A DNA stretch of 64,000 nucleotides from Oscillospiraceae bacterium (GTDB taxonomy: Bacteria; Bacillota; Clostridia; UBA1212; UBA1255), in contig SVJB01000007.1 in the NCBI GenBank assembly GCA_015069185.1, forward strand, positions 4,524 through 68,523, read 5' to 3'. Position numbers and translations under genes: made by a program. The first letter of the stretch is position 1. Every line of letters starts with the position of its first letter. This document shows, piece by piece, positions 4,199-62,788 of the stretch. Below the pieces are notes generated by a model that was given only the letters and a program-made list of their open reading frames with translations, was not told the origin of the DNA and did not search any database.

Positions 4199-4352
4199 AT
4201 AAATCTCTCCACAAAAGAATTACTCCAAGCTATTATAGGCTAATTTTGAAATGTAAACAATAGCTTAAAACTGTTATTGATGTTTTTGTTTCGTGTTTAT
4301 GTGTTCTTGTCATTCTTTGATAGTATTATAGCATATTTTTAGATAACATCAA

Positions 4353-29018: not shown

Positions 29019-30521
29019 ATGATTAATGTTTTAGAATATCTTGAAAACAGTGCTGCAAAGTATCCGGATAAGGTTGCCTTCACAGGCACTGATACAAGTG
29101 TGACTTTTGGTCAGATGCTTGTAAACAGCCGTATTATTGGTAGCCGGTTGATAGAAGCAGGAGCAAACAAAGAGCCTGTCGTTATCCTTATGCACCGCTC
29201 ACCTGAGATGATAGTATCATTCTTCGGCGTTATCGCTGCCGGCTGTTACTATGTGCCAATCGACGAACAAATGCCGGCACACCGCACTGAGCTTATTATG
29301 GACCAGCTTCACGCCCGTTATGTAATTACAGACGACGTTAACAACCCTGCCATACCGGAAGACGCTACTGTATTATGCTATAATGACATTGTGTCAAACA
29401 CGGGTGAAAATGCGATTTGCCTTGATGCCCTTGCCACAAGGCGGGCCCACGCTATCGATAAAGATCCTATTTATATAGTGTTTACTTCCGGCTCCACAGG
29501 CGTACCCAAGGGAGTTGTCACTAACCATCGCTGCGTCATTGATTACGTAGAGCAGCTCACAAAGATAATCGGAGCCGGACATGACTCTGTTTTTGGCATG
29601 CAGTCGCCTCTTTATGTAGACGCTTGTCTTAAAGAAATATATTCAACACTGAAGTTTGGCGCCACCACACATATTGTACCCACAGTGCTTTTCACACAGC
29701 CTGTAAAGCTTGTAGAGTTTCTTAACGAGCATCAGGTAAATACTGTTTGTTGGGTCGTGCCGGCGCTTACATTTATTTCCGGACTCAAAACTTTTAAGAC
29801 AATTGTGCCTGAATATTTGAAGACAGTTGCGTTTGGCAGTGAAGTTTTCCCGCCTAAGCAGCTTAAAGTGTGGCGCGAGACTTTGCCTGAGGCACGATTT
29901 ATTAATCTATATGGCCCTACAGAGGCAACCGGTATGTGTTGCCATTACGAGGTAACAGATAAAACGGATCCGGAGAGGCCCGTACCTATTGGCAAGCCAT
30001 TCCCTAATAAGGAAATTTTTCTGCTTAACGATGATGGCAAGCAAGTACCGGACGGAGAGGTTGGCGAGATTTGCATACGTGGTATCTCTCTGGCTCCCGG
30101 GTACTTTAACAATCCTGAGGTTACAAACAAGGCCTTCGTACAGAATCCTCTTAACACACTCTATCCGGACATAATCTATAAAACAGGAGACTTGGGACGA
30201 TACAACCAAGACGGAGATCTGGAATTCGTTTCACGAAAAGATTTTCAGATAAAGCATATGGGCTACCGTATTGAGCTTGGCGAGATTGAGATGCTTACAT
30301 GCAAAGTAGAGGGCGTAGAGAATGTATGTTGCCTGTATGATAGTGAAAAAAAGAAAATTTCCATGTTCTACATGGGAACAATAGATAAAGGACAGTTGGT
30401 GTCATTACTTAAAGAAAAATTACCTCGATACATGATACCAAATACTGTAATTCAATTGGAGTTAATGCCACTTACTGCGGGTGGCAAAACAGACAGAAAC
30501 GCCTTAAAGCAAATGCTGTAA
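29019..30521 (+). CDS. DltA-like stand-alone adenylation enzyme (amino acid--carrier protein ligase)
   Basis: ANL core motifs FTSGSTGVPKGV, YGPTE, YKTGDLGRY and GGKTDRNAL. 500 aa. Confidence 0.8.
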   Translation: MINVLEYLENSAAKYPDKVAFTGTDTSVTFGQMLVNSRIIGSRLIEAGANKEPVVILMHRSPEMIVSFFGVIAAGCYYVPIDEQMPAHRTELIMDQLHARYVITDDVNNPAIPEDATVLCYNDIVSNTGENAICLDALATRRAHAIDKDPIYIVFTSGSTGVPKGVVTNHRCVIDYVEQLTKIIGAGHDSVFGMQSPLYVDACLKEIYSTLKFGATTHIVPTVLFTQPVKLVEFLNEHQVNTVCWVVPALTFISGLKTFKTIVPEYLKTVAFGSEVFPPKQLKVWRETLPEARFINLYGPTEATGMCCHYEVTDKTDPERPVPIGKPFPNKEIFLLNDDGKQVPDGEVGEICIRGISLAPGYFNNPEVTNKAFVQNPLNTLYPDIIYKTGDLGRYNQDGDLEFVSRKDFQIKHMGYRIELGEIEMLTCKVEGVENVCCLYDSEKKKISMFYMGTIDKGQLVSLLKEKLPRYMIPNTVIQLELMPLTAGGKTDRNALKQML

Positions 30522-30544: not shown

Positions 30545-30778
30545 ATGGACGATTTGATGAATATTCTTCAGGAACTTCATCCGGATGTAGATTTTGACAC
30601 AGAAACAAGTCTCATCGACGATAAGATTCTTGACTCATTTGATATTGTTACTCTGATTGCTGAGATTTCAGATACTTATGATGTTGCCATTCCGGCGCAG
30701 GACATTGTACCTGAGAACTTTAACTCAGCACAGGCGTTATATGCATTAATACAAAGACTTGAAGAAGAGGACGATTAA
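30545..30778 (+). CDS. DltC-like carrier protein
   Basis: 77 aa. Phosphopantetheine-site context DDKILDSFDIVTLI. The stop overlaps the next start (TAATG). Confidence 0.75.
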   Translation: MDDLMNILQELHPDVDFDTETSLIDDKILDSFDIVTLIAEISDTYDVAIPAQDIVPENFNSAQALYALIQRLEEEDD

Positions 30779-32342
30779 TGTTTTTTACATCTCTTAACTT
30801 TTTGGTATTTTTAGGTATTCTCATACCACTGTATTTTCTTGTACCAAAGAAGATACAGTGGATTGTGTTGCTTATTGCAAATGCAGTTTTTTATGTGTTT
30901 GCAGGTACCTCAGGTCTTATTTTCATATCAATAACAATCGTAACTACCTATATCGCCACGATGATTATCGACCATCTATATGGTGTGCAGGAAAATTATC
31001 TTAAAGAAAACAAGGCCCTATTAAGTAAAGAAGATAAAAAATCTTATAAAAATAAAATGATGGTACGCCGTAGGATTGTAGCAGTTTCCTGCGCAGTTAT
31101 CAGCTTTGGCATTATTGCTGTTATGAAGTACTCAGGCCTTTTTCTCAGAGGAACTGAATTTGCAAAGTCACTATCATTGATACTGCCTCTTGGTATTTCA
31201 TATTACACATTCCAGACAATGGGCTACCTGATCGATGTATACAGAGGAACATATAAGCCGGAGAAAAATATTTTTAAGCTTGCTCTGTTCACTTCATTTT
31301 TCCCATTACTATTGCAAGGACCGATTACCAGATTCGGAGACATCGGAAAGAGCCTATATGAGCCGCACTCATTTGACATGCACAATTTTGTGTATGGCTT
31401 AGAGCGTATTTTATGGGGATATTTTAAGAAAGTAGTAATTGCTGACCGCATTTTAATCGCGGTAAAAACAATTATTGGCGCACCTGATACATATGACGGC
31501 GCTTATGTGCTATGCGGTATGGTGTTTTACGCTATACAGCTATACTGCGACTTTACAGGTGGTATTGACATAACAATCGGAATCGCCCAGATTTTGGGAA
31601 TTAAGCTGCCTGAAAACTTTATCAGACCTTTCTTCTCAAAGAATATTGCAGAATACTGGCGCAGATGGCATATTTCTTTGGGAGTATGGTTCAGAGAATA
31701 TTTATTCTATCCTATTTCCGTATCAAAGCCTCTGCTTAAGCTGTCAAAATTCACACGTAATAAATCGGAAACGGCATAGGCATGAGAATTCCGGTGTATG
31801 TTGCCACTATCGCTGTATGGTTTATAACAGGTTTGTGGCACGGAAGCGCATGGAACTTTATTGTATGGGGACTACTTAATGCTCTGATAATTATTGTATC
31901 CGAAGAGTTATCTCCTTTATACGCCAAATTCCACGGTCATTTCCCTGGACTAAAGCATAAATGGGGATACAGATTGTTTGAGATCGGACGAATGTTCTTT
32001 ATAATGTGTTCTCTTCGTGTGCTGGACTGCTATAGAAGTGTAGGCACATCATTTAAAATGTACTCTACCCTTTTCACCAAGTTTAATTATAATATTCTCT
32101 TTGACGGATCTCTCCTCAAGCTGGGGCTTAACCTGTATGACTATATCGTTATCTTTGTCGGTGTTGTTTTACTTGTTGTCTTCAGCCTGGTACAGCGCAA
32201 AGGCAGTGTCAGAGATATGATAGCCCGCAAGCCGATAGGCGTACAAATGGCAATATTTGCCACGCTCTTATTTGCCATACTTATCTTTGGTGCGTACGGC
32301 ATTGGATTTGACGCGTCACAATTTATATACACACAATTCTGA
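30778..32342 (+). pseudogene. MBOAT-family (DltB/AlgI-like) O-acyltransferase split by a 1-nt frameshift (or assembly indel)
   Basis: ORF 30778-31779 (333 aa, ...RWHISLGVWFREYLFYPIS...) and ORF 31782-32342 (186 aa, ...ITGLWHGSAWNF with the catalytic His) are the N- and C-halves of one MBOAT. One extra A at aataaa (31759-31764) would give a continuous ...TRNKIGNGIGMRIPVYV... Confidence 0.7.
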
Positions 32343-51403: not shown

Positions 51404-52492
51404 TTAAATATTTGTCATTCTCTTTTTAGAAACCCCATATGCTGTAACAACAGCTACTGCTACTAAAACTAATATTACATAGTTCATATCTCCTGTAGGC
51501 GGGTTTGGTATTGGATTCTCATTCTCGCCGGGTTGATCTCCGCCAGCCGGTGGTGTTATTTCACTTTGTGTCGGTCCAAAATACTGTATTTCATATAATG
51601 TTATTGCTGGATATCTGCCTTCAGCGATAGACAAACAATTAAACTTAATCTTTGTTGTTGTGTATACTTGATCCAGTTTAACTGCTCCGTTTATTTTCTC
51701 TCCGGTATGCACTGTTACATACTCACCATTCTGGAATACCTGAATATTGTAGCTCTCAACATTAGCCCAAACAGTACATTCAATAATGTTAAAAGATGAC
51801 AGAGATACCTCTTGATCAAAAGTAACTTCTACCCAAGAATTAACATCGTTTGCAACAGCGGCCCAACGGGATTCACAATTTGGCAAAGATCCCACAACTC
51901 CATCAAAAGCAGCAGAAGCTGCATATGGTTCACCCTCGAAAGTAGAGGCTGTTGCTGTAAAGTTGTGTTCTTTTGTTAAAAGGGTTCTTTCCTCTGCATA
52001 ACCAAAAACAACCATTTCATATATTGTTGTGCCAAAGACTCCATTGCTATGCGCATTAACAAACAAGCGAATATCTGTCGTATCTACGGGCTCTGATAGT
52101 GTAATTTTCTCATTAATTATTTCTGTACCTTCATATACTGTAGCCCACGCTCCGTCAATAAGTGCCTGGATCTCAAAATCTAAAGCGCTACCCCAATCCT
52201 TGCATTCATCAATTTGAAATGCTGTAACAGTCACTTTGTCAATAAATGTAACCTGCAACCACTCATCATCAGTATTGGCCGGTGTCGCCCATCTTGAATC
52301 AAGGCTAGAAACTCCGTCAAATGCCTTTGATGCATCATATGCCGGATCTGCAGAACCTGCAGTAAAGTAGTTACCATTCAACCTTGTCAGATTGATCTCT
52401 TCTCCTGTTTCAGCAGCGGATACAATACCAACGCTTAAAAGTAACATCACTGTTGCAATTAAAATACTAATAAATTTTTTCATAATCTTCAT
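51404..52492 (-). CDS. Secreted protein with two discoidin (F5/8 type C)-like domains and a sortase-type C-terminal sorting signal (NPPTG)
   Basis: Signal peptide. Domain ends read ...TTIYEMVVFGY and ...ITLYEIQYFG. NPPTG (51491-51505) is followed by a hydrophobic helix and a KKR tail. Alternative ATG at 52483. Confidence 0.65.
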   Translation of the reverse strand: MKIMKKFISILIATVMLLLSVGIVSAAETGEEINLTRLNGNYFTAGSADPAYDASKAFDGVSSLDSRWATPANTDDEWLQVTFIDKVTVTAFQIDECKDWGSALDFEIQALIDGAWATVYEGTEIINEKITLSEPVDTTDIRLFVNAHSNGVFGTTIYEMVVFGYAEERTLLTKEHNFTATASTFEGEPYAASAAFDGVVGSLPNCESRWAAVANDVNSWVEVTFDQEVSLSSFNIIECTVWANVESYNIQVFQNGEYVTVHTGEKINGAVKLDQVYTTTKIKFNCLSIAEGRYPAITLYEIQYFGPTQSEITPPAGGDQPGENENPIPNPPTGDMNYVILVLVAVAVVTAYGVSKKRMTNI

Positions 52493-52508
52493 CCTCTCCT
52501 TTTATATT

Positions 52509-53609
52509 TTATGAATAAATCTCTATTTCCCAAAATGTTGCGGAACTACCTGTAGACGCATCTATAACCATTCGAAGGGCAGTTGCGTTTACAGTTTCAT
52601 TTAAACTAATATACGAGCCGTTAACGATATCTTCTCCTTCGTGGCATACGATCCACTGACCATTAACCTCGGCTTCAATAACATAAGATGTAACATATCC
52701 CCATGTTTTTTCTTCTTGAATAATCAATCCGGAAACACTTGTTGCCTCTCCGAATGTAACTGTAATGTCCTGTCCACTCAAATTCGGACCTACTTCTGAA
52801 CTCCATCTTGTTGTCATATCTCCATCAAACGCATGTTGAGCTGCATAATCATCACTGTAATTCGTTGTTGCGGAATATGTCCAATCGCCAGTTAATTTTG
52901 TGGAATTTTCCGGGATCTTATTTTTATCAAATAACGATAAAGCCGGCTGTCTTACCTCTGTGCCTTCCGGAACTTCAACAAATAAACCCTCAAGTGTGAT
53001 TTCTTTGAAGTTTGCAGTAGCACCTGTCACTGTATGCACTAATATTTTAATTGCATATGTTGCTTTTGTATTCTGCTCAAACTCATAGTACTCGTCTTCC
53101 TCTATTGTTATCTCTTCTAAAACGGTTATCCACTCTTGTGTTTCTTCGTCATAATACTGTACTTCCCATTCAATTATAGTCCCCCAATCAACATTTTCTA
53201 AAATAGAAAGGCCATCTAAAATAACAGGATAACCAAATTGAATAAGTAATGCATCCGGTTCAAACGGAATTTTGACGGTGGTTCCCCAATATGTATCAGG
53301 ATCATTATCAAAAGCTTTTTCTGCCCCGTATCCGTCAATATGCGTCAATGTCTCAAAGAACACATTTTCATTGTTCGCAACAACATCCACAAAAGTCAGA
53401 CCTTCATCCGGATCTGGTGTCGGCTCAGGTGTAGCTGTTGCTGTTGCCGGTACTTTTGTTGCTATAATGTCACTATTTTTTGTCGGCGCGGGACTCTGTA
53501 CAGTATTCGGAGTCGAACCTCCCTGAGGATTTTCCCCTTCTCCACAACCGAACAAAGCAAGCCCAAATACGACAATTAATAAAATAAGTCCTATTATTTT
53601 TCTTTTCAT
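52509..53609 (-). CDS. Lipoprotein with two discoidin-like domains
   Basis: Lipobox ALFGC and a PT linker. FKEITLEGLF and ATFWEIEIYS domain ends. ATGA overlap with the upstream gene. Confidence 0.65.
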   Translation of the reverse strand: MKRKIIGLILLIVVFGLALFGCGEGENPQGGSTPNTVQSPAPTKNSDIIATKVPATATATPEPTPDPDEGLTFVDVVANNENVFFETLTHIDGYGAEKAFDNDPDTYWGTTVKIPFEPDALLIQFGYPVILDGLSILENVDWGTIIEWEVQYYDEETQEWITVLEEITIEEDEYYEFEQNTKATYAIKILVHTVTGATANFKEITLEGLFVEVPEGTEVRQPALSLFDKNKIPENSTKLTGDWTYSATTNYSDDYAAQHAFDGDMTTRWSSEVGPNLSGQDITVTFGEATSVSGLIIQEEKTWGYVTSYVIEAEVNGQWIVCHEGEDIVNGSYISLNETVNATALRMVIDASTGSSATFWEIEIYS

Positions 53610-56131
53610 AACTCGTTCTTTCCTTTCTTCTTTTTAGCTTTTATTCCTACTGTTACTCCCATCGTCAGTAAACAGATCGTTGCGATTGTACTTCCTATAA
53701 TCAATCCTACTTTGCTTTTTCTGTTGTTATTGTTGTTTGCACTGTTATGAGGTTGTTTATTTGCCTCTTTCCACTCTTCTGGCCAATCAGGCAATTCTTC
53801 TACAGAATTACCGTATTTCAAAGCTATTTTTTGTTTTTCTTCTGTTGGCTTGAATGAAACCCATGCCCATGCACTATCTCCTGATTCAACAAGTTCACAA
53901 GAAGTAGGTGCGCCATTTATCTGAGCAGTAGCAACCTGCGTCTCTAACGGAAGAGGACCAAATCGAACCTTGACATCTTCAAACCCAGAGGTCTCCTTTA
54001 ATGTTACTTGTGCGGTCTGTATACCATCTTTGGGATATGTCACAAGCAAATCTACTGTTCCCGCAGCATTTGGAATCTCAAAGTTCTGAATATCAAGTTC
54101 CCAATTTTCCGGAAGTCTGGGCATGAGTTTGAGTGTATTATTGCGTACAGCAGATACACCGATTGCTAATGAATAACACTTCATTGCATCTGATACTTGA
54201 TAAAGGTTTCCTAAATCACCTTGTCTTGATACAATACCTTTTTCTATATTTACACTAACCATTTCCGGTATCATATATGGTTCCGGAAGCCCTGGCATGT
54301 ATGCTAATTTACTTAAATTATTCATCAATTTTGTAGCGTCACTCATTTGATCCATAATAAGTGCACTCTGTGTCATCATGGAATGGTCATATCCCACACC
54401 TGCAAAAGCGCCCCAATAATCATAATTACTAACAGATGTAATATCCTTCTCATATGAAATTCTTGATCTGGATAGCCAATTCTGGTCCATATCCATTGTG
54501 TCATATCCATAATAATCAGCCATCATTACAGTTACCGGATCATGACGGAATCCAAATGTAGTTGGCGTCCATCCTGTTTTATCGCTTCCTAACCTATCTG
54601 TAATTGCTTCGTATAATGCCTCTGCACAAGCTTTCCACTCCTGAGCTTCTTCAGTCTTTCCATATGCTTCTGCTATTTGCGCATAACCAAGCATACCAAA
54701 ATAACATGGTACGTTGCAGTATAATGTATATGCCATCATGCCCGCTTCTGATTCTGCATACAAAAGACCTCTTCGCGCAAAAGAAATATCCGGATTTTCA
54801 AAACTCCATGTAATCCATTTTGCTGCTTCTTTAATATATATCCAGTTGTCTTCAATCCACTTAAGATCTTTTCCGGATTCAAGCCATAATTGATAATTTG
54901 CCATCATGGTTAGTCCGTGACCATCTGTTTCTTGGTTTCCTAAATTCTGGTAGTCATCTCCAAACAGCTCTTTTGTATATCTTGTTGGCCAACCACCCGG
55001 TGCTAAAACAGTCGAATAAATCATAGGTTGATTTACTATTACTGTATAATGACCCGGAATATCTTTTCCTAGTATTTTTAAATTGTTTTCAGGAAAATAC
55101 ATCATCCATCTATTCGAGAAAGATGTTGCTCTTTGTGCTGTCTCCACCTGTCCAAATGAGATTAGAGACATTAGCCCTCTAGCAGTTCTGGTATACATTG
55201 CGTTATAAAAGCTGCCCGCATTCTCCATATATGCTCCAAAACTTTGTCTCCACGCAGGTGCATCTTTATAGGATTCATGCATCAACCCATCTTCAGCTGT
55301 ACGGTCAACCATACTTTTCAAATTAGTATATAAAATTCCTGTTGCAGCATTGGCAAGCGGCGTACCTGAAAAATACACATAACTGCCTTCATGATTGTCC
55401 GGATAATAAAATTCAGGAATATCAAGATATTCTTCTTCTTTTGTCATCAAACCATCAATAATACTATCAAGTGCCTTTGCTACACTATCCGGATATGGAT
55501 CTAGACTATCAATAGTATGAGAATCAAAAAATTTATCACTTGTATTTACTGTTATTTTGCCACCTGACAACACCCCTGTATTATCATTTGTCAAATAGAT
55601 TCCGTCAAAAACAGGATTTCCATTCTTTTCTTTGTTGTCTTCTAAAATAATAGACTTAATCTCTTTGTCTTGCAATTTTACTTTAAATACGCACTTATCT
55701 TCTCCTTCATAAGCACCTTTTAGATGCAAAACTGATTTAAGAGCTGTTTGGAGTCCAGTATTTGCATTCTCACCTTTGAATGGGAGAGAGGAGTGACTCC
55801 AGATATTGTAATACCACATCGTATATCCAAAGGTAAGAGGAATAATATCTTCACTACCATCTTTGTATGTAATAATAATCTCACCCATTTTCTCCCCGAT
55901 AAATCTAACATCAGCATTGTCAGCTGTGCCCCAAGCCGGAGAACCATCATCTATTGAGTGATATCCGCCTACAACATACATATATTTATATTTTGTTGCT
56001 TCCGTTGTTCTAAACGGGAAGGAACTCCAGTTGCTGTCATTTGTTGCTGCCCACACATTGTTTTTAAGTCCAATACAACAAACAATTACAAGTAATAAAA
56101 CTAAACTGATAATCATTATTTGTTCTCTCAT
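53606..56131 (-). CDS. Large secreted protein with C-terminal TM anchor; possible (alpha/alpha)6 glycosidase-like core
   Basis: 841 aa with signal peptide. The central W/Y-rich helical region (ETDGHGLTMMANYQLWLESGKDLKWIEDNWIYIKEAAKWITW) resembles six-hairpin glycosidases. C-terminal TM helix plus KKKKGK tail. SD AGGAG 6 nt upstream. Confidence 0.4.
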   Translation of the reverse strand: MREQIMIISLVLLLVIVCCIGLKNNVWAATNDSNWSSFPFRTTEATKYKYMYVVGGYHSIDDGSPAWGTADNADVRFIGEKMGEIIITYKDGSEDIIPLTFGYTMWYYNIWSHSSLPFKGENANTGLQTALKSVLHLKGAYEGEDKCVFKVKLQDKEIKSIILEDNKEKNGNPVFDGIYLTNDNTGVLSGGKITVNTSDKFFDSHTIDSLDPYPDSVAKALDSIIDGLMTKEEEYLDIPEFYYPDNHEGSYVYFSGTPLANAATGILYTNLKSMVDRTAEDGLMHESYKDAPAWRQSFGAYMENAGSFYNAMYTRTARGLMSLISFGQVETAQRATSFSNRWMMYFPENNLKILGKDIPGHYTVIVNQPMIYSTVLAPGGWPTRYTKELFGDDYQNLGNQETDGHGLTMMANYQLWLESGKDLKWIEDNWIYIKEAAKWITWSFENPDISFARRGLLYAESEAGMMAYTLYCNVPCYFGMLGYAQIAEAYGKTEEAQEWKACAEALYEAITDRLGSDKTGWTPTTFGFRHDPVTVMMADYYGYDTMDMDQNWLSRSRISYEKDITSVSNYDYWGAFAGVGYDHSMMTQSALIMDQMSDATKLMNNLSKLAYMPGLPEPYMIPEMVSVNIEKGIVSRQGDLGNLYQVSDAMKCYSLAIGVSAVRNNTLKLMPRLPENWELDIQNFEIPNAAGTVDLLVTYPKDGIQTAQVTLKETSGFEDVKVRFGPLPLETQVATAQINGAPTSCELVESGDSAWAWVSFKPTEEKQKIALKYGNSVEELPDWPEEWKEANKQPHNSANNNNNRKSKVGLIIGSTIATICLLTMGVTVGIKAKKKKGKNEL

Positions 56132-56709: not shown

Positions 56710-57939
56710 TTATATCAACCAAATTGGGACTATGAGGTTATCTCTGTCAAAGGCGGAAAGACAGTCGCTCATGCAGAGCACGGCAGCTGTGCCAAGCACC
56801 AGTGGCGATTTATCGATAATATTAAAAGTCTTTGTGATTCTTTTATCGGGGTTAGCCGTTTTCTTGATTTCCAACGGACACAATTTACCATCTCCTTCAA
56901 TGATAACATCAATCTCTCTTGCATCGCGGTCACGATAATAATTGAGATAAGGTTCTTTACCTGCATTTTGATAACTTTTCATAATTTCGGATACAGTAAA
57001 GTTTTCAAGTAACGCGCCACTCATTGCGCCGCTTTCTGCGACTTCGGGCGAAGACCATTTTGTAAGATAGCAGATGAGACCTGTATCATAAAAATATAAT
57101 TTTGGCGTTTTAATCGTGCGTTTTAGGACATTGTTGGAATATGGATGCAGAAGAAAGATAATTCCCAATGTTTCAAGTATCTGAAGCCATGCCTTTGCCG
57201 TAACCTGATCGATATCTGCATCTTCCGCCATGGCTTTGTAGTTAACAAGCTGTGATGCACGAGCGGCAACCGAGGTGATAAATCTTGTAAACTTTAAAAC
57301 ATCAATTGCTCCAGAGAGCTCGCGAACGTCACGCTCGATGTAGGTGGCTAAATAAGAGGAATAGTACATATTTCTGTCGGTGTACGCTCCGCTTGCGAGA
57401 CCGGGCATACAGCCGTTCCATATGCGCTCATACATTTGGGGAGTGGTAAGCACTTGGATGTGTTTGCTATCCTCGACAAGTGCATCAAAATCAGTGGTAA
57501 AGGGATGAGGTGCTGCACCAATAATTTCTCTTTGAGATAAAGGAGACATATGCAGAAGCGCAACACGACCTGCCAGTGATTCCTGAACACCTTTCATCAG
57601 ACTGAAAACTTGCGAACCTGTCAACCAAAAATCGCCAGGGTTATGATGTGTGTCTACATGAATTTTTATATATGTGAACAGCTCCGGTGCATACTGAACC
57701 TCATCGATAATAATCGGCGGCTTGTGAAGCTGCAAGAACATTTTAGGATCGTTTTTTGCCATTTCTCTTACAGTTAAATCGTCAAGAGAAATGTATCCTC
57801 GGCCGATATTTTCTTTTTCGGCAAGTTTTTTAAGCATCGTAGATTTACCAGACTGACGCGGACCGGTAAGCAAAATTGCCGACCAAGTTTTTGAAAGTTC
57901 TGTTATATGCCGTTCCATATGTCGATTAATATATCTCAT
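56710..57939 (-). CDS. AAA-type ATPase with C-terminal DUF4143-like domain
   Basis: Walker A GPRQSGKST and Walker B IIIDEVQ. ~409 aa; this is the common 'ATPase + DUF4143' architecture. ATG 57939 is preferred. Confidence 0.7.
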   Translation of the reverse strand: MRYINRHMERHITELSKTWSAILLTGPRQSGKSTMLKKLAEKENIGRGYISLDDLTVREMAKNDPKMFLQLHKPPIIIDEVQYAPELFTYIKIHVDTHHNPGDFWLTGSQVFSLMKGVQESLAGRVALLHMSPLSQREIIGAAPHPFTTDFDALVEDSKHIQVLTTPQMYERIWNGCMPGLASGAYTDRNMYYSSYLATYIERDVRELSGAIDVLKFTRFITSVAARASQLVNYKAMAEDADIDQVTAKAWLQILETLGIIFLLHPYSNNVLKRTIKTPKLYFYDTGLICYLTKWSSPEVAESGAMSGALLENFTVSEIMKSYQNAGKEPYLNYYRDRDAREIDVIIEGDGKLCPLEIKKTANPDKRITKTFNIIDKSPLVLGTAAVLCMSDCLSAFDRDNLIVPIWLI

Positions 57940-58000
57940 AATACACCTCATCAGAGTATAATTTCTCGTCTGCATTATATATTATTATATGTTTAAAAGC

Positions 58001-58050
58001 AATAAAAATCTCGGCTAAAATATGTAAGCTTCACATTTCAGCCGAGATTT
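58001..58050 (-). terminator. Rho-independent terminator ~110 nt downstream of the 895-aa fusion ORF
   Basis: Minus strand: AAATCTCGGCT, 23-nt loop, AGCCGAGATTT, then TTTATTGC. Arms at 58006-58016 and 58040-58050. Confidence 0.7.
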
Positions 58051-58161
58051 TCCGAAAAGACGCATTAAACGAGAAAAAGAATATAGTTGATTCTATTTGA
58101 AAAATTCGTTAATTATAGCTATCTTTTCGACACGTCGTTGACCATATACTATAATAAACTG

Positions 58162-60849
58162 TCAACATGTTTTACGATTATTATAGATTCTCTTTCTTAG
58201 TTCCTCTACAAAATATACATAATCCTTGTATGATATCTCAGGATTTATGAGGTGATCCAAAGCCGGATAGTATCCCGGTTTGCCAAGAAGTGGCTCGATT
58301 CTATCTAATTCTCTGTCAATTGCTTCTTTGCCTTTTGCAATTTCCATTTTATCTATACCGCCCATCAGTGACATATTAGGAAATCGCTTACGTAACTCTA
58401 CTACATCGTTGCCTGCTGCAACTTCAAACGGCATCATCATGTTAATACCCGCCTCTGCAAACAAGGGTATCAGGTCATCACAAATACCGTCTGTATCAAC
58501 AGCAATTACCGCAATATTATGTTTCTTGGCAAAATCACATATTTTTTTATAGTTTGGCAACATAAACTCTCGTACCATATCAGGAGATATAATCGATCCG
58601 GATTTGCCTGACATATCTTCCCAAATATGAATAATATCCACATCAATATATTGTACAATCTTTTCATATAATTTTAACCAGAAATCTGTTATGTAATCCA
58701 TCATTTCATGTATGAGCTCCGGCTCATCATAAAACATATAACACAGTTCTTCTACTCCTATCATATCTCTTAATGTGCCAAACAAACCATAAGGATATGC
58801 GCCAATCTGAACAGGAGCATCCATCTCTTTCACAGCCTTTACATAATCATAAAAGAAAGGTGTGAAACGCTCCTCTATATCCGGATTAAGTCTCTCGTCT
58901 CTAATTTTCTCCCAGTCCTCACGGCACGTAACAGCCGGTTTTAATATTTTAGGTATAGCGCTTTTTCCTTTCATACCTTGTAATATAGAGCCATGCATAT
59001 CCTGATATATAATATGTCTATCTGTTTCTTCTAACACTTTATATTCAAAAGCCGGATAATAAAACATATATACCGGACCACTTATAATTTGTATCCCTTG
59101 ATCAAAGCCAAATTCGGCAGCACACCATGCTCCGGGGTCTTCAATGCCATCTTCCTGTTTCCATCTCTCAATAGTCTCTCCCCATGGGCCGAAATAAAAC
59201 ATAAATGGTGTCCTATCAATGTCCTTGCCTATTGCACAATTTCTGAATCTTTCTTTGTTTGTCATTATATTCATTCCTTCCCTTTTTGTTTTTAACAAAA
59301 ATTCTTTTGCTGCCTGCGCCGCCGAAGCAGCATCTTTTGTATAACAATCTGCTCCGATCTCGTCTGCAAACTCCTGAGTCACCGGTGCGCCTCCTACCAT
59401 AATATATACCTGTTCCCGCAGCCCGGCTTCCGTCAGGGCATCAATAATTTCCTTCTGTCCTATCCTTGTTGTTGTAAGCAGCGCCGACGCACAAACAAGT
59501 TGAGCATCATGCTTCTTAACGGCAGATACAACCTCCTGCGGATCTACATCCACTCCCAAGTCAATACATCTTATATTCTGGGCTTCCAGCATGATTTTCA
59601 CAAGATTTTTACCTATATCATGCATATCTCCTTTGACTGTACATATAACAGCAGTGCCAATAGGTGTGCTTAATTCTGTGAAAACTGACGTTTTCAGTTG
59701 TTGAATTCCTTTGTTCATCGCTCTTGCTGCTACTAAAACCTCGGGAACAAACACTTTATTTTCACGAAATCTAGCTCCGATAATATTCATACCTGCAATG
59801 AGACCTTCATTAATAATAGTCTCCGGTTGCAAACCTACATCCAAAGCAGCCTCTATCGAAGAAATAATCTCATTTGTTTTTCCTCTTTGAAGGTTTTCAG
59901 ATATGGTTAGTAAAATGTCATTCTGTACTTTTTTTCTGTTGTTTGCGGTAAGTAATTGTTCTCTGTATCTTTGTGGTGTCACACCGTAAATCTTCTTAAA
60001 TTGCCTATAAAAAGTGGGAATATCTTTATATCCGCATTGCTCTGCAATGTTTTCATTAGACATCTGTGTATTCTGCATTAGATATATCGCTCTTTTGAAG
60101 CGGCTATTTCTCACATAATCTGAGAAATGTTCACCCATTATATTATAAAACTTACGACTTAATGATGCTTTGCTTATATATAATTCATCAGCTGTTTTTT
60201 GCATTGAGAAGGCAGGATCATTGTAATTATTATTGATATATTGTATGACACGTGAAACAATTTGCTCTTCCTCTGACATCTCCATATACGACACTGTTTC
60301 ATTGTTTTCAGCCAATCTCTTGGCATAAATAAGTAACATCATCATTTTAGATATTACTATTGTTTTCCATTCGCTTTTTTTCTTAACTTGTTCGTCCTGG
60401 ATATCATTATAGAAATCTTCTATTATTTTTTGCTGTTTTAAGTCAAGTTTAATATTTACTGCGAAATTATTACTGGAAAATAAATTGAATAAGAATCTTC
60501 TATTTCCAATTTCTGCTAATTCACCTATAAGTATATCATTAATATCAAATATTATATTTGACACCGTTACTGATTGGTCTTTATCCTTGGCAAACCATCC
60601 GTGCGGCACAGCAATATTCAGGATACTAAGACTACCCTTCTTACATGAGTATATTTTGTTCCAAATACGATGCAAGCCTGCACCCTCTGTAACATAACAG
60701 ATTTCTATATATCTGTGCTGAGATAAATCAAACAACGAGACTTCGTCAGAATATACCTTGTCATATCTAATGGTACCCAAAGAAACTAAATCTTTGACTT
60801 CTTTCTTTTCTTTATCTGTGTTTCGGATATTATCTGTCTCGTGTCTCAC
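58162..60849 (-). CDS. Tri-domain fusion protein: AraC-type regulator (cupin + HTH) / cobalamin-binding domain / URO-D (MtaA/CmuA-like) methyltransferase-type domain
   Basis: Continuous 895 codons. AraC HTH at aa ~195-297. B12 signature D408xH410xxG413-x41-S455xL457-x28-G486G487 (DMHDIG at 59611-59628). URO-D-like part starts at M526/M529 (MTNKERF...DRTP). Confidence 0.75.
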   Translation of the reverse strand: MRHETDNIRNTDKEKKEVKDLVSLGTIRYDKVYSDEVSLFDLSQHRYIEICYVTEGAGLHRIWNKIYSCKKGSLSILNIAVPHGWFAKDKDQSVTVSNIIFDINDILIGELAEIGNRRFLFNLFSSNNFAVNIKLDLKQQKIIEDFYNDIQDEQVKKKSEWKTIVISKMMMLLIYAKRLAENNETVSYMEMSEEEQIVSRVIQYINNNYNDPAFSMQKTADELYISKASLSRKFYNIMGEHFSDYVRNSRFKRAIYLMQNTQMSNENIAEQCGYKDIPTFYRQFKKIYGVTPQRYREQLLTANNRKKVQNDILLTISENLQRGKTNEIISSIEAALDVGLQPETIINEGLIAGMNIIGARFRENKVFVPEVLVAARAMNKGIQQLKTSVFTELSTPIGTAVICTVKGDMHDIGKNLVKIMLEAQNIRCIDLGVDVDPQEVVSAVKKHDAQLVCASALLTTTRIGQKEIIDALTEAGLREQVYIMVGGAPVTQEFADEIGADCYTKDAASAAQAAKEFLLKTKREGMNIMTNKERFRNCAIGKDIDRTPFMFYFGPWGETIERWKQEDGIEDPGAWCAAEFGFDQGIQIISGPVYMFYYPAFEYKVLEETDRHIIYQDMHGSILQGMKGKSAIPKILKPAVTCREDWEKIRDERLNPDIEERFTPFFYDYVKAVKEMDAPVQIGAYPYGLFGTLRDMIGVEELCYMFYDEPELIHEMMDYITDFWLKLYEKIVQYIDVDIIHIWEDMSGKSGSIISPDMVREFMLPNYKKICDFAKKHNIAVIAVDTDGICDDLIPLFAEAGINMMMPFEVAAGNDVVELRKRFPNMSLMGGIDKMEIAKGKEAIDRELDRIEPLLGKPGYYPALDHLINPEISYKDYVYFVEELRKRIYNNRKTC

Positions 60850-60979
60850 ATTTAACTAGCTTTCATTTTTCATTGTTTATCAGTTAGATTTTAGTATATA
60901 CGAGATTGGTGTACAATTGCTTTTGTTTTTTCTTGTGCAGGTTTTCTTTTTGTTTTTGGAACAAAACCACATCTGAAGC

Positions 60980-61885
60980 TTATTGTTTTCCTTCAAAATA
61001 CTGTTCTATTCCGTTTAACATGCCTTGGACCAGCTTATCCTGATATTTTTCTGTACCGAGCAATGCGTCCTCTGCTGCATTAGACATATATCCAACCTCA
61101 ACAATAGTAACCGGTACAGTACACCAGTTAATACCACTCATTGTATCTGTTTCCCACACATGAATCTTCTGAGCTCCGGTGGCCGCTACTAATTCATCAA
61201 GCATTGCAACAGAAAGTGCTTTGCTATCTTCATATATTTCAGAATTATATGGATTATTTTTCTTAGGACAAACAGTTAATATACCATTTTTTTCTTTATC
61301 GGTAGAACCATTTGCATGAATTCTTATGAAAGCATCCGCTCCCGCTTCGTTAGCAACCGCAGCTCGCTCTGCGTTACTTATATCAACATTATGCGTTGTC
61401 CTTATCATCAGAACTTTATATCCTTTAGCTTCCAATTGTGTTTGTAACTTGAGAGCTAGTATAAGATTAAGTTCGTATTCTGCTAGTCCTGAGACCTCAC
61501 CGCTGGTGCCACTTGTTACCTTTGCCTTTGTTTCTGAAGCCCCGGGCCCAATAGGTTCTTTGTCGTAATTTCCTTTTTTCTGATGACCTGCGTCGATAAC
61601 AACCAACAACGGCTCCGGCGTGGGTGTCGGCGTTGGTGTGGGTGTTGGTGTTGGAGTGGGTGTAGGTGTGGGTGTTGGCGTTGGAGTGGGTGTAGGTGTG
61701 GGTGTTGGCGTTGGTGTTGGTTCGTTAGTTGCGCCAGGTGTTGCACAAGTTGTTTCTGTCGGTGTTACAGTAAACTCCGGCTTTGCAGTTTTCATTGTTT
61801 CATCACTCTCGCTACAGCCAACAATACTACTAAATAATATAATTAAAAGAAGAAAAAAAATGCATTTTCTGCTTATTTTCCACAC
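60980..61885 (-). CDS. N-acetylmuramoyl-L-alanine amidase (Amidase_3) lipoprotein with (TP)n linker
   Basis: Lipobox SIVGC and a (PT)~22 linker. [15 protein letters not shown] and EVGYMSN zinc-site motifs. GTG start at 61885. Confidence 0.8.
61616..61720 (-). repeat. Coding hexanucleotide (GGTGTN)n repeat with a perfect 30-bp tandem duplication, encoding (Thr-Pro)n
   Basis: ttggagtgggtgtaggtgtgggtgttggcg occurs at 61651-61680 and again at 61681-61710. The flanking sequence is the same hexamer register. Confidence 0.9.
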
Positions 61886-61917
61886 AAGATATCACCCATT
61901 AATTAATATTTTATAAC

Positions 61918-61959: not shown

Positions 61960-62481
61960 TTATTTAACTTTTTTAGGGCAGGTATCACAATTTCCATCAC
62001 AACTACTAAAGTGACCCAACAACTTTTCACAGCCTTTGCAGAACAAAATATTATTAAATGCTTCCGGTGAGAAGGTGCGCTCTTCTTCAAATTCAATATA
62101 ATCAATCGCATATTGAAAAACTGTATAAATAATCTGTGTGTTAGTATGCTTTTGCTTCGGGAAAGTGTATTTACGACCTAATATAGTTATTTCTTTTCCC
62201 GCATCGGCAGTCTGCCACATATTATTGATGGCAACCCGAATGCTTTTCTCTACATTCTCAATTGTAATGGAAAGTCTCTTTCCAATGTCTATATACAATG
62301 CTTTTGGGATTATCTCCTTTATATCCACGGATGAATAATCCACGTCTGGATCCAATGATTCTATAAATAAAACAACTGCTTCTCTGATGTAAAAATATCC
62401 TTTATAACTAGGTTTTATACCTAATTCTAATAATATATAATTTATTGCGCGATATAACTTAGGTCTATTCAAGCTTTTCAT
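61960..62481 (-). CDS. Orphan Spo0A C-terminal (Spo0A_C) DNA-binding domain protein with Cys-rich tail; no receiver domain
   Basis: ELGIKPSYKGYFYIREAV aligns with Spo0A EIGVPAHIKGYLYLREAI. IPKALYIDIGKRLSITIENVEKSIRVAINNMW aligns with [32 protein letters not shown]. Tail CKGCEKLLGHFSSCDGNCDTCP. ATG 62481 is preferred. Confidence 0.75.
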   Translation of the reverse strand: MKSLNRPKLYRAINYILLELGIKPSYKGYFYIREAVVLFIESLDPDVDYSSVDIKEIIPKALYIDIGKRLSITIENVEKSIRVAINNMWQTADAGKEITILGRKYTFPKQKHTNTQIIYTVFQYAIDYIEFEEERTFSPEAFNNILFCKGCEKLLGHFSSCDGNCDTCPKKVK

Positions 62482-62485
62482 ATAT

Positions 62486-62788
62486 CTATTCCGCAACACG
62501 AGATGTATAAAAATTAATTTCCGGAAGTGGAAGCTGTATATCTCCCAGCAAGAATTCAACAGGTACTCTTAATGCATCGGCAAACACAACAAGTTCTATA
62601 TCAGAAACCATTCTTATACCCAACTCAATACGATTAACGGTAAGCCGATCGAGCATCAGACCTCTCGACTGTAATCTGGCAGCCAATTCATTTTGAGTAA
62701 TTCTAAGATGGTTCTTACTATATTTACCAAGACGAACATATCGGATTCTCTCTCCACATATATTTTTCTTGCCCCTTGCTTGTTTCAA
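62486..62788 (-). CDS. XRE-family HTH transcriptional regulator
   Basis: ITQNELAARLQSRGLMLDRLTVNRIE HTH_3 pattern. TTG start with AGGAGG 8 nt upstream. The stop lies 4 nt before the next ATG. Confidence 0.7.
   Translation of the reverse strand: MKQARGKKNICGERIRYVRLGKYSKNHLRITQNELAARLQSRGLMLDRLTVNRIELGIRMVSDIELVVFADALRVPVEFLLGDIQLPLPEINFYTSRVAE

Follow-up and report, generated by a model that had tools for sequence, protein, structure and literature searches.

What does a cell gain from an AraC-type regulator that carries a corrinoid-binding module and a methyltransferase-like barrel on the same polypeptide, and could the state of the bound cobalamin bear on transcription? The question is raised by a gene on the reverse strand (58162..60849) of the 64,000-nucleotide stretch of Oscillospiraceae DNA analysed here (the window). 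The ORF listing gives it as a single frame of 895 codons with a GTG start and zero internal stops, the uninterrupted frame that an earlier, sequence-only reading had described, and its product matches Pfam, NCBIfam and PDB profiles. From the N-terminus it consists of a cupin-type AraC domain, a double HTH, a B12-binding_2 cap, a B12-binding Rossmann domain and a barrel of the URO-D fold. All Pfam hits exceed the curated cut-offs—AraC_binding at aa 40-84 (23.2 bits, cut-off 21.1, with homologs scoring higher), HTH_18 at aa 220-298 (68.6, cut-off 33.6), HTH_AraC at aa 266-296 (42.7, cut-off 26.6), B12-binding_2 at aa 316-386 (66.3, cut-off 23), B12-binding at aa 399-505 (82, cut-off 32.1) and URO-D (PF01208) at aa 630-886 (69.6, cut-off 23.9)—and the AraC, corrinoid and URO-D assignments of that reading are thereby borne out.

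The cupin domain and its helical arm (aa ~26-187; 60289..60774, reverse strand) are recognised by Pfam and by the AraC_N family HMM, which matches aa 26-187 at 203 bits. Residues E49, G56, G58, H60 and G72 are invariant in this domain and P82 and H83 nearly so, and the AF2 model places a beta-sandwich at aa 22-101 with a pLDDT of about 90. The double HTH (59956..60264, reverse strand) is identified by HTH_18, HTH_AraC and PDB matches to AraC-family DNA-binding domains, including 3LSG, 3OOU, 4FE4, GadX, MarA and SoxS. It is followed by the four-helix cap (aa 316-386; 59692..59904, reverse strand), which is of the methyltransferase type (FVPEVLVAARAM) by Pfam and by alignment to the corrinoid proteins 1Y80 and 7XCN; a helix at residues 292-321 is modelled as continuous from the HTH into this cap. 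Every domain of the fusion is modelled confidently, and the full-length model has a pTM of 0.53, so that the interdomain geometry is not to be trusted. The Rossmann domain (aa 399-505; 59335..59655, reverse strand) carries the His-on signature D408-x-H410-x-x-G413 (59611..59628), 41 residues, S455-x-L457, 28 residues, G486-G487. The residue numbers and spacings first reported proved exact on recount, and the seven signature residues are invariant across 22 family members.

A frame of this length could be produced by a sequencing or assembly artefact, in which a stop or frameshift is missed at the T5/A5 runs of the junction and two ordinary genes are read as one, a concern already voiced in the sequence-only reading. 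The junction is vulnerable to such an error: a TAA lies in the +1 frame right after the T5 run, and a change of one nucleotide in length would split the ORFs. The identical ORF nevertheless recurs in the JGI metagenome assemblies 3300031555 and 3300032167, which are separate from each other, and in an NCBI MAG (MBE7066686.1). Further sequencing runs yielded alleles that differ by 6 and 15 substitutions, and in these too the frame of 895 aa is intact. The 15-substitution allele, found on three contigs from different runs, has 63 nucleotide differences across the gene and preserves the junction. An artefact is contradicted by the independent assemblies and by the diverged in-frame allele and is extremely unlikely; the single gene stands. 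Comparison of alleles gives an omega of 0.08 overall, 0.05 for the AraC part and 0.06 for the URO-D part, with 47 synonymous changes; the B12 part, with 3 synonymous and 4 non-synonymous changes, offers too few for a test of selection. Purifying selection has acted after the fusion, and the ORF is a genuine, selectively maintained three-module protein.

The C-terminal domain (aa 529-895; 58162..59265, reverse strand) is placed among the TIM barrels of the URO-D superfamily by Pfam, free-standing homologs, AF2 and Foldseek. The free-standing homologs, 51-89% identical, begin MTNKERF or MTxxER, which corresponds to M529 and agrees with the N-terminus picked out earlier for this part. They make up what we call clade X, with the invariant residues D17-R18-x-P20, HIWEDMSG, VD-T-DG and LDH and at least 1,028 matches in the word-indexed search alone. 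The AF2 model (pLDDT 93.8, pTM 0.91) shows a (beta/alpha)8 URO-D fold. Its top Foldseek match is MtaA 4AY7 (E 1e-11, TM 0.66/0.71), equalled by UROD; MtaA 4AY7 and the UROD structures together span E 1e-11 to 1e-9 and TM 0.6-0.7. The label MtaA/CmuA-like, proposed from the letters, did not survive in the strict sense. TIGR01463 (MtaA/CmuA), with a cut-off of 235.4 bits, gives the domain 42-44, phmmer finds MtaA 4AY7 only at E 0.002, a clade X profile has zero matches in the PDB by sequence, and the positions of the zinc ligands H-x-C...C read V-D-T-D-G and L-D-H. Strict membership in the MtaA/CmuA family is rejected on the score and on the replaced zinc site. The uroporphyrinogen decarboxylase HemE is likewise rejected, the TIGR01464 score of 19.4 bits being far under the cut-off of 303. 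The D-x-D-G...D-H signature is common to the fusion and to U2 and U3, two URO-D paralogs of the operons described below; a third paralog, U1, retains the zinc motif (Y-H-N-C-G...S-G-C-D).

Clade X genes are nearly always orphans, annotated as 'uroporphyrinogen decarboxylase family' and located in carbohydrate-rich neighbourhoods. Corrinoid or activase genes were found near clade-X URO-D genes in 0 of 46 metagenome loci and at none of the loci L013-L017. The case for corrinoid dependence of the domain is therefore built on paralogy, the fusion itself and one locus (L012), where an AraC-B12 gene divergently adjoins a clade-X URO-D gene 69% identical to that of the fusion.

The architecture of three domains does recur in a survey of homologs, but rarely. 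The two other triple fusions (P0039 and P0061) have URO-D domains 23-27% identical to that of the fusion and to each other, and with domains so distantly related they look like independent events. Gene order points to how the present one arose: a close relative (L144/L145) has amidase, URO-D and L28, and the window has amidase, fusion, ATPase and L28. The blastn breakpoints between L144 and the window delimit a segment of 1,624 bp (59294..60917, reverse strand) that is missing from the syntenic locus of the relative. It holds its own promoter region and codons 1-519, with only the last few codons and the stop missing. The AraC-B12 module has been inserted between the amidase gene and a URO-D gene of the D-x-D-G...D-H type that already stood there on its own; having lost its stop codon, the module is read in frame through the retained 5'-UTR and RBS of that gene. 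Junction DNA, reading frames and homology to the L144/L145 leader mark the linker, aa 520-528 (KTKREGMNI; 59266..59292, reverse strand), as the translated former 5'-UTR; at E524K it differs among fused alleles. A Shine-Dalgarno-like AAGGGAAGGA lies at 59275..59284 (reverse strand), 9 nt upstream of ATG-529, and since this internal RBS and ATG are retained, the free 367-aa enzyme may still be made. The URO-D protein of the relative without the fusion is 87-89% identical, at a dS of about 1.2. The triple fusion is thus a rare, recent, lineage-specific insertion and not an old designed architecture, and the window offers a dated, breakpoint-resolved birth of a multi-domain protein, by insertion and reading through a retained leader.

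Such an origin invites the explanation that the module landed in frame by chance, that its AraC-B12 part functions just as it had before, and that the URO-D domain is a passenger, also made alone from ATG-529, with no added function. The fusion is indeed recent and confined to one species-level lineage, its linker is an old leader with the Shine-Dalgarno-like site intact, a 367-aa product identical to residues 529-895 is called on one short contig, and zero triple fusions occur among the best 150 of 1.84 billion representatives. However, the diverged alleles have kept the frame while accumulating their synonymous changes, with omega of 0.05-0.06 for both outer domains. Two other lineages have built analogous fusions with other URO-D paralogs, B12-URO-D fusions recur, and AraC-B12 and clade X are neighbours in L012 as well. 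We consider a fusion of no consequence quite unlikely.

The first 519 residues place the protein in a large, uncharacterised AraC-corrinoid family. In a search of 5.8 billion proteins, almost every match among the best 120 of 6,444 combines HTH_18, B12-binding_2 and B12-binding in 500-540 aa, and residues 1-520 are homologous to more than 100 clusters at 38-53% identity over 53-58% of the query. These proteins share the order of cupin, double HTH, B12 cap and B12 Rossmann domain with the fusion, the AraC_N, AraC_HTH and B12 HMMs all matching; they are abundant in gut and rumen Clostridia and named 'helix-turn-helix domain-containing protein' or 'cobalamin-dependent protein' at NCBI. The AraC-B12 gene stands first in operons with two to three URO-D paralogs, a RACo-type reductive activase and DUF2284, in the order AraC-B12, U1, (U2), U3, RACo, DUF2284 (L004-L009, L018, L019 and L023, the last two genes varying in order); U1 is MtaA-like (144 bits) and RACo AcsV-like (269 bits). 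A second corrinoid gene is present in none of the 19 loci with fused AraC-B12, and homologous operons (L025, L026, L032, L056 and L064) have a stand-alone corrinoid protein in its place. The sequence-only reading had taken regulator, corrinoid protein and methyltransferase to be separate polypeptides in corrinoid methyltransferase systems. This is true only of characterised systems and fails beyond them: AraC-corrinoid fusions are abundant, and corrinoid-URO-D fusions without AraC are found in both domain orders. A literature search found no paper on a regulator covalently joined to a methyl carrier.

The corrinoid module finds its best PDB match in 1Y80 (E 5.8e-54) and scores 199 bits with TIGR02370, just under the curated cut-off of 215.3; the MtgC, MtbC and MtaC equivalog models leave the fusion protein far below each cut-off. 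The motif Wx9EH, which we take to be the cap motif of the CarH/LitR B12 photoreceptor regulators, is found neither in this cap nor in any of the 22 family members, and residues 300-400 contain zero Trp. The Pfam search gives no match to MerR, the DNA-binding domain being AraC-type. As judged by sequence, the module is of the methyltransferase-cognate type and not of the CarH type. In the B12 tree, fused domains interleave with stand-alone ones from the homologous operons, and the domain of the fusion lies 0.32 from a fused one (L006) and 0.34 from a stand-alone one (L025). Because of this interleaving, and because AraC-B12 is the only corrinoid protein of the relatives' operons, the B12 domain is by descent most probably a catalytic methyl carrier. 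For the same two reasons the earlier judgement that the protein is 'regulatory rather than catabolic' does not follow, since in the relatives AraC-B12 is the sole corrinoid protein among methyltransferase and activase genes.

That judgement had been drawn from missing partner genes, and their absence does hold across the window: its 64 kb contain no other URO-D, B12, AraC-B12, RACo or DUF2284 gene and no activase, MT2 or B12-uptake gene, the remaining ORFs being housekeeping or cell-surface. Of the cognate methyltransferase and activase that accompany the two-domain relatives, only the fused URO-D domain is at hand in the window. A sigma-70-like promoter candidate, TGTACA-16-TAAAAT (60888..60915, reverse strand; 9/12 matches in a consensus scan), sits about 40 nt upstream of the GTG start within the inserted segment, and no AraC-site direct repeats or operator were found upstream of the gene. 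A terminator scan places an intrinsic-terminator-like hairpin with a 20-bp stem and T-run (58005..58051, reverse strand) about 110 nt past the stop codon. The gene looks monocistronic.

Our tentative reading, which we hold possible though at less than an even chance, is that the AraC-B12-URO-D protein is a corrinoid-dependent methyltransferase with transcription control that responds to the state of the cobalt. The URO-D domain would be the substrate-side (MT1-like) methyltransferase, and the His-on cobalamin of the middle domain would serve as methyl acceptor and donor for it; to judge by the genes around relatives, the methyl donors may be methoxylated compounds of plant origin or methylated sugars. 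The AraC part is predicted to bind DNA. The corrinoid state (apo or holo, Co(I)/Co(II) or methyl-Co(III)) might be relayed to it through the continuous helix that links the last HTH helix with the B12 cap, and transcription would then follow the supply of methyl donor, the protein acting much as a trigger enzyme does. For turnover, genes outside the window would have to provide an activase and an enzyme that accepts the methyl group; deprived of both, the protein would act as a single-turnover switch. Gating of DNA binding by the corrinoid state is plausible. The more general proposition, that AraC-corrinoid proteins are trigger-enzyme transcription factors in which the cobalamin state directly sets DNA binding, seems somewhat unlikely. 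Under it a methyltransferase specific for the substrate would write the state, an activase and an acceptor methyltransferase would reset it, and the triple fusion could be the most self-contained example.

Regulation could also be conventional, the cupin sensing a small molecule and no information passing from cobalt to DNA: the B12 domain would be the corrinoid protein of the operon, URO-D its methyltransferase, and the fusion would provide only co-expression or proximity. The retained cupin, with its invariant E49 and H60 and near-invariant H83, means that ordinary small-molecule sensing could explain regulation without corrinoid input. B12-less AraC homologs exist at 38-40% identity, nothing sets the B12 domain apart from catalytic ones, and orphan clade-X URO-D genes often adjoin ordinary AraC regulators (L103, L113/114, L119 and L138). 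Non-fused systems, moreover, have a separate PocR-AraC (MtaR-type) regulator by the corrinoid gene (PMC13602510), and in many surveyed loci a PocR+HTH_18 regulator adjoins a stand-alone corrinoid gene. Yet this account gives no reason why a low-copy DNA-binder and a stoichiometric methyl carrier are kept as one polypeptide family-wide, and leaves unexplained the addition of URO-D on apparently three independent occasions; the modelled rigid helix between HTH and cap suggests mechanical coupling. We regard it as unlikely.

Many gut and rumen Clostridia rely on scavenged cobamides, and this reliance favours a further possibility, in which the B12 domain reports holo versus apo and cobamide-dependent methyltransferase genes are switched on only with the cofactor at hand, as a protein counterpart of the B12 riboswitch with the opposite sign. 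The invariant, complete His-on signature agrees with this, and so does the lack of an activase in the window, since a sensor of this kind could do without one. On the other hand, the operons of relatives encode no other corrinoid protein for their methyltransferases, so that the AraC-B12 domain must also carry methyl groups, and the tethering of methyltransferase domains is left unexplained. A sensor of cofactor availability is quite unlikely.

In gut and rumen anaerobes, corrinoid methyltransferase systems remove methyl groups from methoxylated plant compounds and from drugs, as well as from methylamines and methanol. How expression of these systems is controlled is barely known, MtaR having been characterised only recently. 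That regulator and methyl carrier are covalently joined across a large family suggests that methyl flux or the state of the cofactor is read out directly, and the triple fusion may hint at B12 chemistry feeding directly into gene control. If the reading of cobalt-state-responsive control is true, the protein would be without precedent in two respects, as a transcription factor that senses the state of B12 independently of light and as a catalytic methyl carrier that also serves as a regulator. The family would also tie the orphan clade X genes to cobamide chemistry, giving a function class to more than 1,000 unannotated proteins.

Among known systems, the CarH/LitR repressors are likewise transcription factors with a B12-binding_2 and B12-binding module; they have a MerR-type DNA-binding domain, AdoCbl light sensing and a Wx9EH cap, whereas the fusion has an AraC-type DNA-binding domain and a methyltransferase-type cap and its hosts are gut and rumen anaerobes. 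The cap, Rossmann domain and D-x-H-x-x-G/S-x-L/G-G signature are shared with MtaC, MtbC, MttC, MtgC, Moorella 1Y80 and the O-demethylase corrinoid proteins, whose operon slot is filled by the AraC-B12 protein of relatives; unlike in these proteins, the B12 domain of the fusion is internal, with the AraC regulator on its N-side and the methyltransferase on its C-side. Type 1 mlp clusters, widespread among anaerobic Firmicutes, combine several paralogs of the URO-D superfamily with a corrinoid protein and a bacterial activase (RACE/RamA) but have no H4folate methyltransferase (Kountz & Balskus, PMC10418091). By this published description they resemble the operons of the two-domain relatives, but their Mlps share about 30% identity with MtaA/MtbA and their corrinoid protein is free-standing, whereas in the relatives only U1 is MtaA-like. 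The text of PMC10418091 makes no mention of AraC, helix-turn-helix or DUF2284, and Mlp2, Mlp3, a free corrinoid protein and the RACE activase are absent from the window. Acetogen four-component O-demethylases consist of MT-I, corrinoid protein, MT-II and activating enzyme (PMC12915777). They follow the same logic as the fusion, a divergent URO-D-type MT-I setting the substrate and a reductive activase being required, but as four separate proteins, with an MT-II that is usually pterin-binding and a regulator that is not fused. MtaR, the AraC-type activator of the mta methanol-methyltransferase operon of Eubacterium limosum, is the first gene of a corrinoid methyltransferase operon, as in the two-domain relatives (PMC13602510); it is a separate protein with a PocR sensor, whereas the fusion has a cupin sensor and a covalently attached corrinoid protein. 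CmuA of Methylobacterium and MtsD/F/H of Methanosarcina combine a URO-D-superfamily methyltransferase and a corrinoid domain in one polypeptide, as the fusion does. In these proteins the methyltransferase comes first and a DNA-binding domain is missing, whereas in the fusion the corrinoid domain precedes a URO-D domain that is without the H-x-C...C zinc site.

The 895-codon reading frame that the sequence-only reading had described as one polypeptide is a real, uninterrupted ORF with a GTG start on the minus strand (58162..60849). All the domain names proposed for its product lie above the Pfam curated thresholds: AraC_binding at residues 40-84, HTH_18 at 220-298, HTH_AraC at 266-296, B12-binding_2 at 316-386, B12-binding at 399-505 and URO-D at 630-886. 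Judged by its profile matches, the protein belongs to the AraC/XylS family and to the URO-D superfamily. The corrinoid-binding signature had been counted exactly (D408, H410, G413, 41 residues, S455-x-L457, 28 residues, G486-G487), and none of its seven residues varies among 22 aligned family members. With 199 bits on TIGR02370, the corrinoid module is of the methyltransferase-cognate kind; among solved structures it comes closest to 1Y80, a corrinoid protein from Moorella (E 5.8e-54), with MttC, MtmC and MtaC ranking next and MetH after them. At the level of sequence, the fusion protein is a corrinoid-protein homolog slightly below the curated cut-off. A CarH-like photoreceptor identity was ruled out by the domain profiles and a check of the cap motif. 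The gene is preceded at ~40 nt by a promoter-like site and followed at ~110 nt by a terminator with a 20-bp stem, and therefore looks monocistronic; no direct repeats were found in its promoter region.

At the fusion junction, a TAA in the +1 frame lies directly 3' of a T5 run, so that two genes might in theory have been merged by a 1-nt error. Such an artefact is ruled out, as the frame is kept in independent assemblies and in a diverged allele. Contigs of two separate JGI metagenome assemblies match the window at 100% identity, and the same 895-aa protein is present at NCBI in a Ruminococcaceae/Oscillospiraceae MAG (MBE7066686.1). Two more alleles of 895 aa carry 6 and 15 amino-acid substitutions, one change (E524K) falling within the linker; the more diverged allele keeps the junction and was recovered in three contigs from different sequencing runs. 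Its DNA differs from the window by 47 synonymous and 16 non-synonymous changes, with a Nei-Gojobori omega of 0.08 for the whole gene; taken separately, the AraC and URO-D parts give 0.05 and 0.06, and the B12 part has changed too little for selection to be judged. Judged from these substitutions, the ORF has been under purifying selection since the fusion.

The fusion protein has 6,444 matches at E<=1e-10 among 5.8 billion proteins searched. The best 120 almost all measure 500-540 aa, combine cupin, HTH_18, B12-binding_2 and B12-binding domains, lack URO-D and are 38-53% identical to residues 1-522; they are encoded in MAGs of Clostridia, among them Ruminococcaceae and Lachnospiraceae, and their only names are 'helix-turn-helix domain-containing protein' or 'cobalamin-dependent protein'. 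We built component-wise HMMs and annotated 97 fetched loci with them. In the contexts examined, the AraC-B12 gene mostly leads an operon, followed by three URO-D paralogs, U1 (~334 aa), U2 (~350 aa) and U3 (~372 aa), and then by a RACo-type reductive activase (Fer2, Raco_middle and RACo_C_ter) and DUF2284; U2 is sometimes missing, and the last two genes occur in either order. A second corrinoid gene within 8-10 kb was found in none of 19 AraC-B12 loci. In homologous operons that share U1/U3, RACo and DUF2284, a free 210-aa corrinoid protein is encoded instead (L025, L026, L032, L056, L064). Fused B12 domains and free corrinoid proteins do not separate in a neighbour-joining tree but interleave, the window domain lying at a distance of 0.32 from a fused domain (L006) and 0.34 from a free one (L025). 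This interleaving, together with the lack of a second corrinoid gene in the 19 loci, argues that the fused B12 domain is no separate sensor class. By descent and position it is the predicted methyl carrier of the operon, and the comparison shows a module descended from, and on sequence grounds interchangeable with, catalytic corrinoid proteins.

Loci with a free corrinoid gene (n=73) contain RACo in 37 cases, a URO-D gene in 35 and a separate AraC regulator in 28. All five such regulators scanned with Pfam (L041, L044, L062, L086, L090) combine PocR with HTH_18, and are thus of the type of MtaR, recently characterised in Eubacterium limosum (PMC13602510). A gene for an AraC-type regulator of ~420 aa directly adjoins the free corrinoid gene in L027, L030, L035, L037, L041, L043, L044, L048, L052, L054, L062, L073, L075, L084, L086, L090, L092 and L096, at times overlapping it by 1-4 nt and often accompanied by DUF2284 and RACo; such adjacent pairs are a plausible parallel route to regulator-corrinoid fusions. 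In the cupin domain of the AraC-corrinoid family (residues 26-187; window 60289-60774), E49, G56, G58, H60 and G72 are invariant and P82-H83 nearly so. These residues could form a metal or ligand site, a feature unusual among AraC-type sensor domains. AraC-corrinoid fusions are undescribed in the literature searched, which did not reach most subscription journals; its matches on the topic were MtaR and the mlp clusters. We regard this family as the weightier result, and the triple fusion of the window as a recent curiosity.

The operon paralogs help to place the C-terminal barrel. U1 scores 144 bits on a methylcobalamin:CoM methyltransferase model and retains the MtaA zinc motif Y-H-N-C-G ... 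S-G-C-D. U2, U3 and the window URO-D domain score only 19-50 bits on the models applied to U1, and at the aligned positions of its zinc motif have D-x-D-G ... D-H in common. The alignment shows the window barrel to belong to a D-x-D-G class present in corrinoid operons; we infer that U1 is the methyl-corrinoid:acceptor enzyme and that the D-x-D-G class comprises the substrate-side enzymes. The scores and zinc ligands rule out an MtaA/CmuA ortholog or HemE. The clade of the window domain, here called clade X, has D17, R18, P20, H213, W215, E216, D217, D257, D259, E281, K306, D337 and H338 invariant in 42 sequences (numbered from M529). The modelled domain (pLDDT 93.8, pTM 0.91) retrieves MtaA 4AY7 first by fold (E 1e-11, TM 0.66/0.71), with true decarboxylases about equal and identities of 14-17%; by sequence the domain has almost no visible relatives in the PDB, where a clade-X profile found nothing at E<=1, and it took the fold comparison to show the relationship.

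Searched on its own, the C-terminal domain matches 1,028 homologs, and the 120 top-ranking ones are without exception free-standing proteins of 355-400 aa with 51-82% identity; to U3 the domain is only ~30% identical, and to U2 27-28%. Neither corrinoid nor activase genes were found near the free clade-X genes of L013-L017 or of 46 metagenome loci, and several of the free genes adjoin an ordinary cupin-AraC regulator. The lack of a corrinoid gene in the 46 loci makes a constant corrinoid dependence of clade X a less safe assumption. A second, independent pairing is found in locus L012, where a clade-X gene with 69% identity to ours has as its divergent neighbour an AraC-B12 gene whose identity to ours is only 35%. 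In the same locus, a Transposase_mut/MULE transposase (3087-4265) lies between two clade-X paralogs beside the divergent AraC-B12 gene; mobile elements may shuffle these modules.

The survey of homologs showed the two-domain AraC-B12 architecture to be common; the three-domain architecture recurs only in P0039 (860 aa) and P0061 (843 aa) among the matches listed, both likewise without an activase nearby. Compared in pairs, the URO-D domains of the three triple fusions share only 23-27% identity, so the fusions look like independent events; a truncated gene located upstream of AraC-B12 in L004 matches the URO-D domain of P0039 at 63% identity. P0039 is encoded close to a CE15 glucuronoyl esterase (L001 5407-6627). 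Among the best 150 matches of an exhaustive HMMER search of 1.84 billion representatives there was no triple fusion; the search did retrieve URO-D-then-B12 proteins (585-648 aa), a protein with the order B12-then-URO-D (613 aa), and AraC homologs of 38-40% identity that lack the B12 part.

Sequence relatives of the window reveal how its fusion arose. The 90%-identity cluster of the window protein includes a free 367-aa URO-D protein, P0243, which is 89% identical. In the P0243 loci (L144, L145) the order is amidase, 87 nt, URO-D, small ORF and ribosomal L28; in the window it is amidase, fusion gene, AAA_14/DUF4143 ATPase and L28. The breakpoints (blastn) are at window 60917/60918 and 59293/59294, and the 1,624 bp between them, comprising the promoter region and AraC-B12 codons 1-519, are missing from L144. 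The comparison shows, as far as sequence can tell, an origin of the triple fusion by insertion. Loss of a stop codon between neighbouring operon genes is ruled out for the window by this synteny, and is also contradicted by the identity of the fused URO-D domain to operon paralogs (~30%) versus orphan genes (82-89%). Among the best matches listed, the nearest AraC-B12 relative of the inserted module is 53% identical and lies within a full operon. Homology with L144 restarts ~30 nt upstream of ATG-529 and covers the old Shine-Dalgarno site, so that the nine-residue linker KTKREGMNI is a former leader, now translated. The SD-like AAGGGAAGGA still stands 9 nt before ATG-529, and the URO-D enzyme may therefore also be translated independently.

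The AAA_14/DUF4143 ATPase gene (56710-57975, minus strand) has a G+C content of 0.41-0.45, above the ~0.33-0.37 of its surroundings; in L144 its place is taken by no more than a 67-aa ORF, which marks the gene as a second insertion flanking the URO-D gene. A block of ~4.9 kb with three minus-strand genes (51404-56131) differs between strains, being missing both in L144 and in the fused-allele strain L147; it encodes an 841-aa protein that has a signal/anchor but matches no Pfam family, and two F5/8-type-C (discoidin) proteins of 366 and 362 aa. A similar pair, an 804-aa protein with no Pfam family and a discoidin protein, lies ~5.6 kb from an orphan clade-X gene in L013. The amidase gene (Amidase_3, N-acetylmuramoyl-L-alanine amidase; 60980-61885, minus strand) contains a long (Thr-Pro)n linker of ~24 repeats, which yields spurious antisense ORFs with Gly-Val and Cys/Trp/Arg repeats (61583-61916). 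Small proteins consisting of the Spo0A C-terminal DNA-binding domain alone are encoded at 61960-62559 and upstream in L010 (5060-5833, 8369-8890); they are orphan Spo0A_C paralogs, one of whose genes adjoins that of an HTH_3 protein. Elsewhere in the window, two adjacent plus-strand ORFs (30778-31779 and 31782-32342) match positions 80-253 and 260-327 of the MBOAT profile beside an AMP-binding gene for a DltA-like ligase (29019-30521); the pair resembles a DltB-like gene interrupted by a stop codon, perhaps a pseudogene, perhaps the product of a sequencing error. On the minus strand, a putative sensory-hydrogenase signalling pair is formed by the gene for an [FeFe]-hydrogenase-like protein that ends in a PAS domain (21159-22847) and, immediately after it, one for a SpoIIE/PP2C phosphatase (19994-21172); another hydrogenase is encoded at 17591-19018.

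The flanks had been described correctly: the 64 kb contain no further URO-D, corrinoid, activase, DUF2284, pterin-type methyltransferase or B12-transport gene. The conclusion drawn from them, a regulatory rather than catabolic role, is not compelled. In the mechanism we consider, the barrel would methylate the adjacent cobalamin from a methyl donor, and the state of the cobalt would act on the AraC DNA-binding domain. Such coupling is favoured by the retention of the regulator-carrier fusion throughout a very large family and by the repeated tethering of methyltransferase domains to AraC-B12. In the full-length model, one unbroken helix (292-321) connects the last helix of the HTH with the cap bundle, and the cap must move for methyl transfer; this, too, speaks for coupling. 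The same AF2 model reaches a pTM of only 0.53, at which domain docking is not deducible, and this weighs against coupling, as do the absence of an operator in the promoter region and of partner enzymes nearby, the youth of the triple fusion and the kept internal start site; the conserved cupin domain (E49/H60/H83) could also sense alone. Neighbourhoods of the relatives contain GH78 rhamnosidases, GH127, GH36, CE15 glucuronoyl esterase, SASA and uronate-pathway genes, hinting, as a lead only, that the donors could be O-methyl sugars or methoxylated glycosides of plants. Orphan clade-X genes lie near hexuronate-pathway genes (UxaC, altronate dehydratase) in L013-L015; together with the CE15 gene near P0039, they hint at 4-O-methylglucuronate or similar methylated sugars as possible substrates.

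Among known systems, the fusion protein falls outside the MtaA/CmuA family, HemE and CarH, and its locus is not an mlp cluster (PMC10418091). The canonical O-demethylase-type system consists of four separate proteins (PMC12915777); on its domain content, the fusion protein may be likened to the corrinoid protein and the substrate-side methyltransferase (MT-I) of that system, here joined to an AraC regulator.
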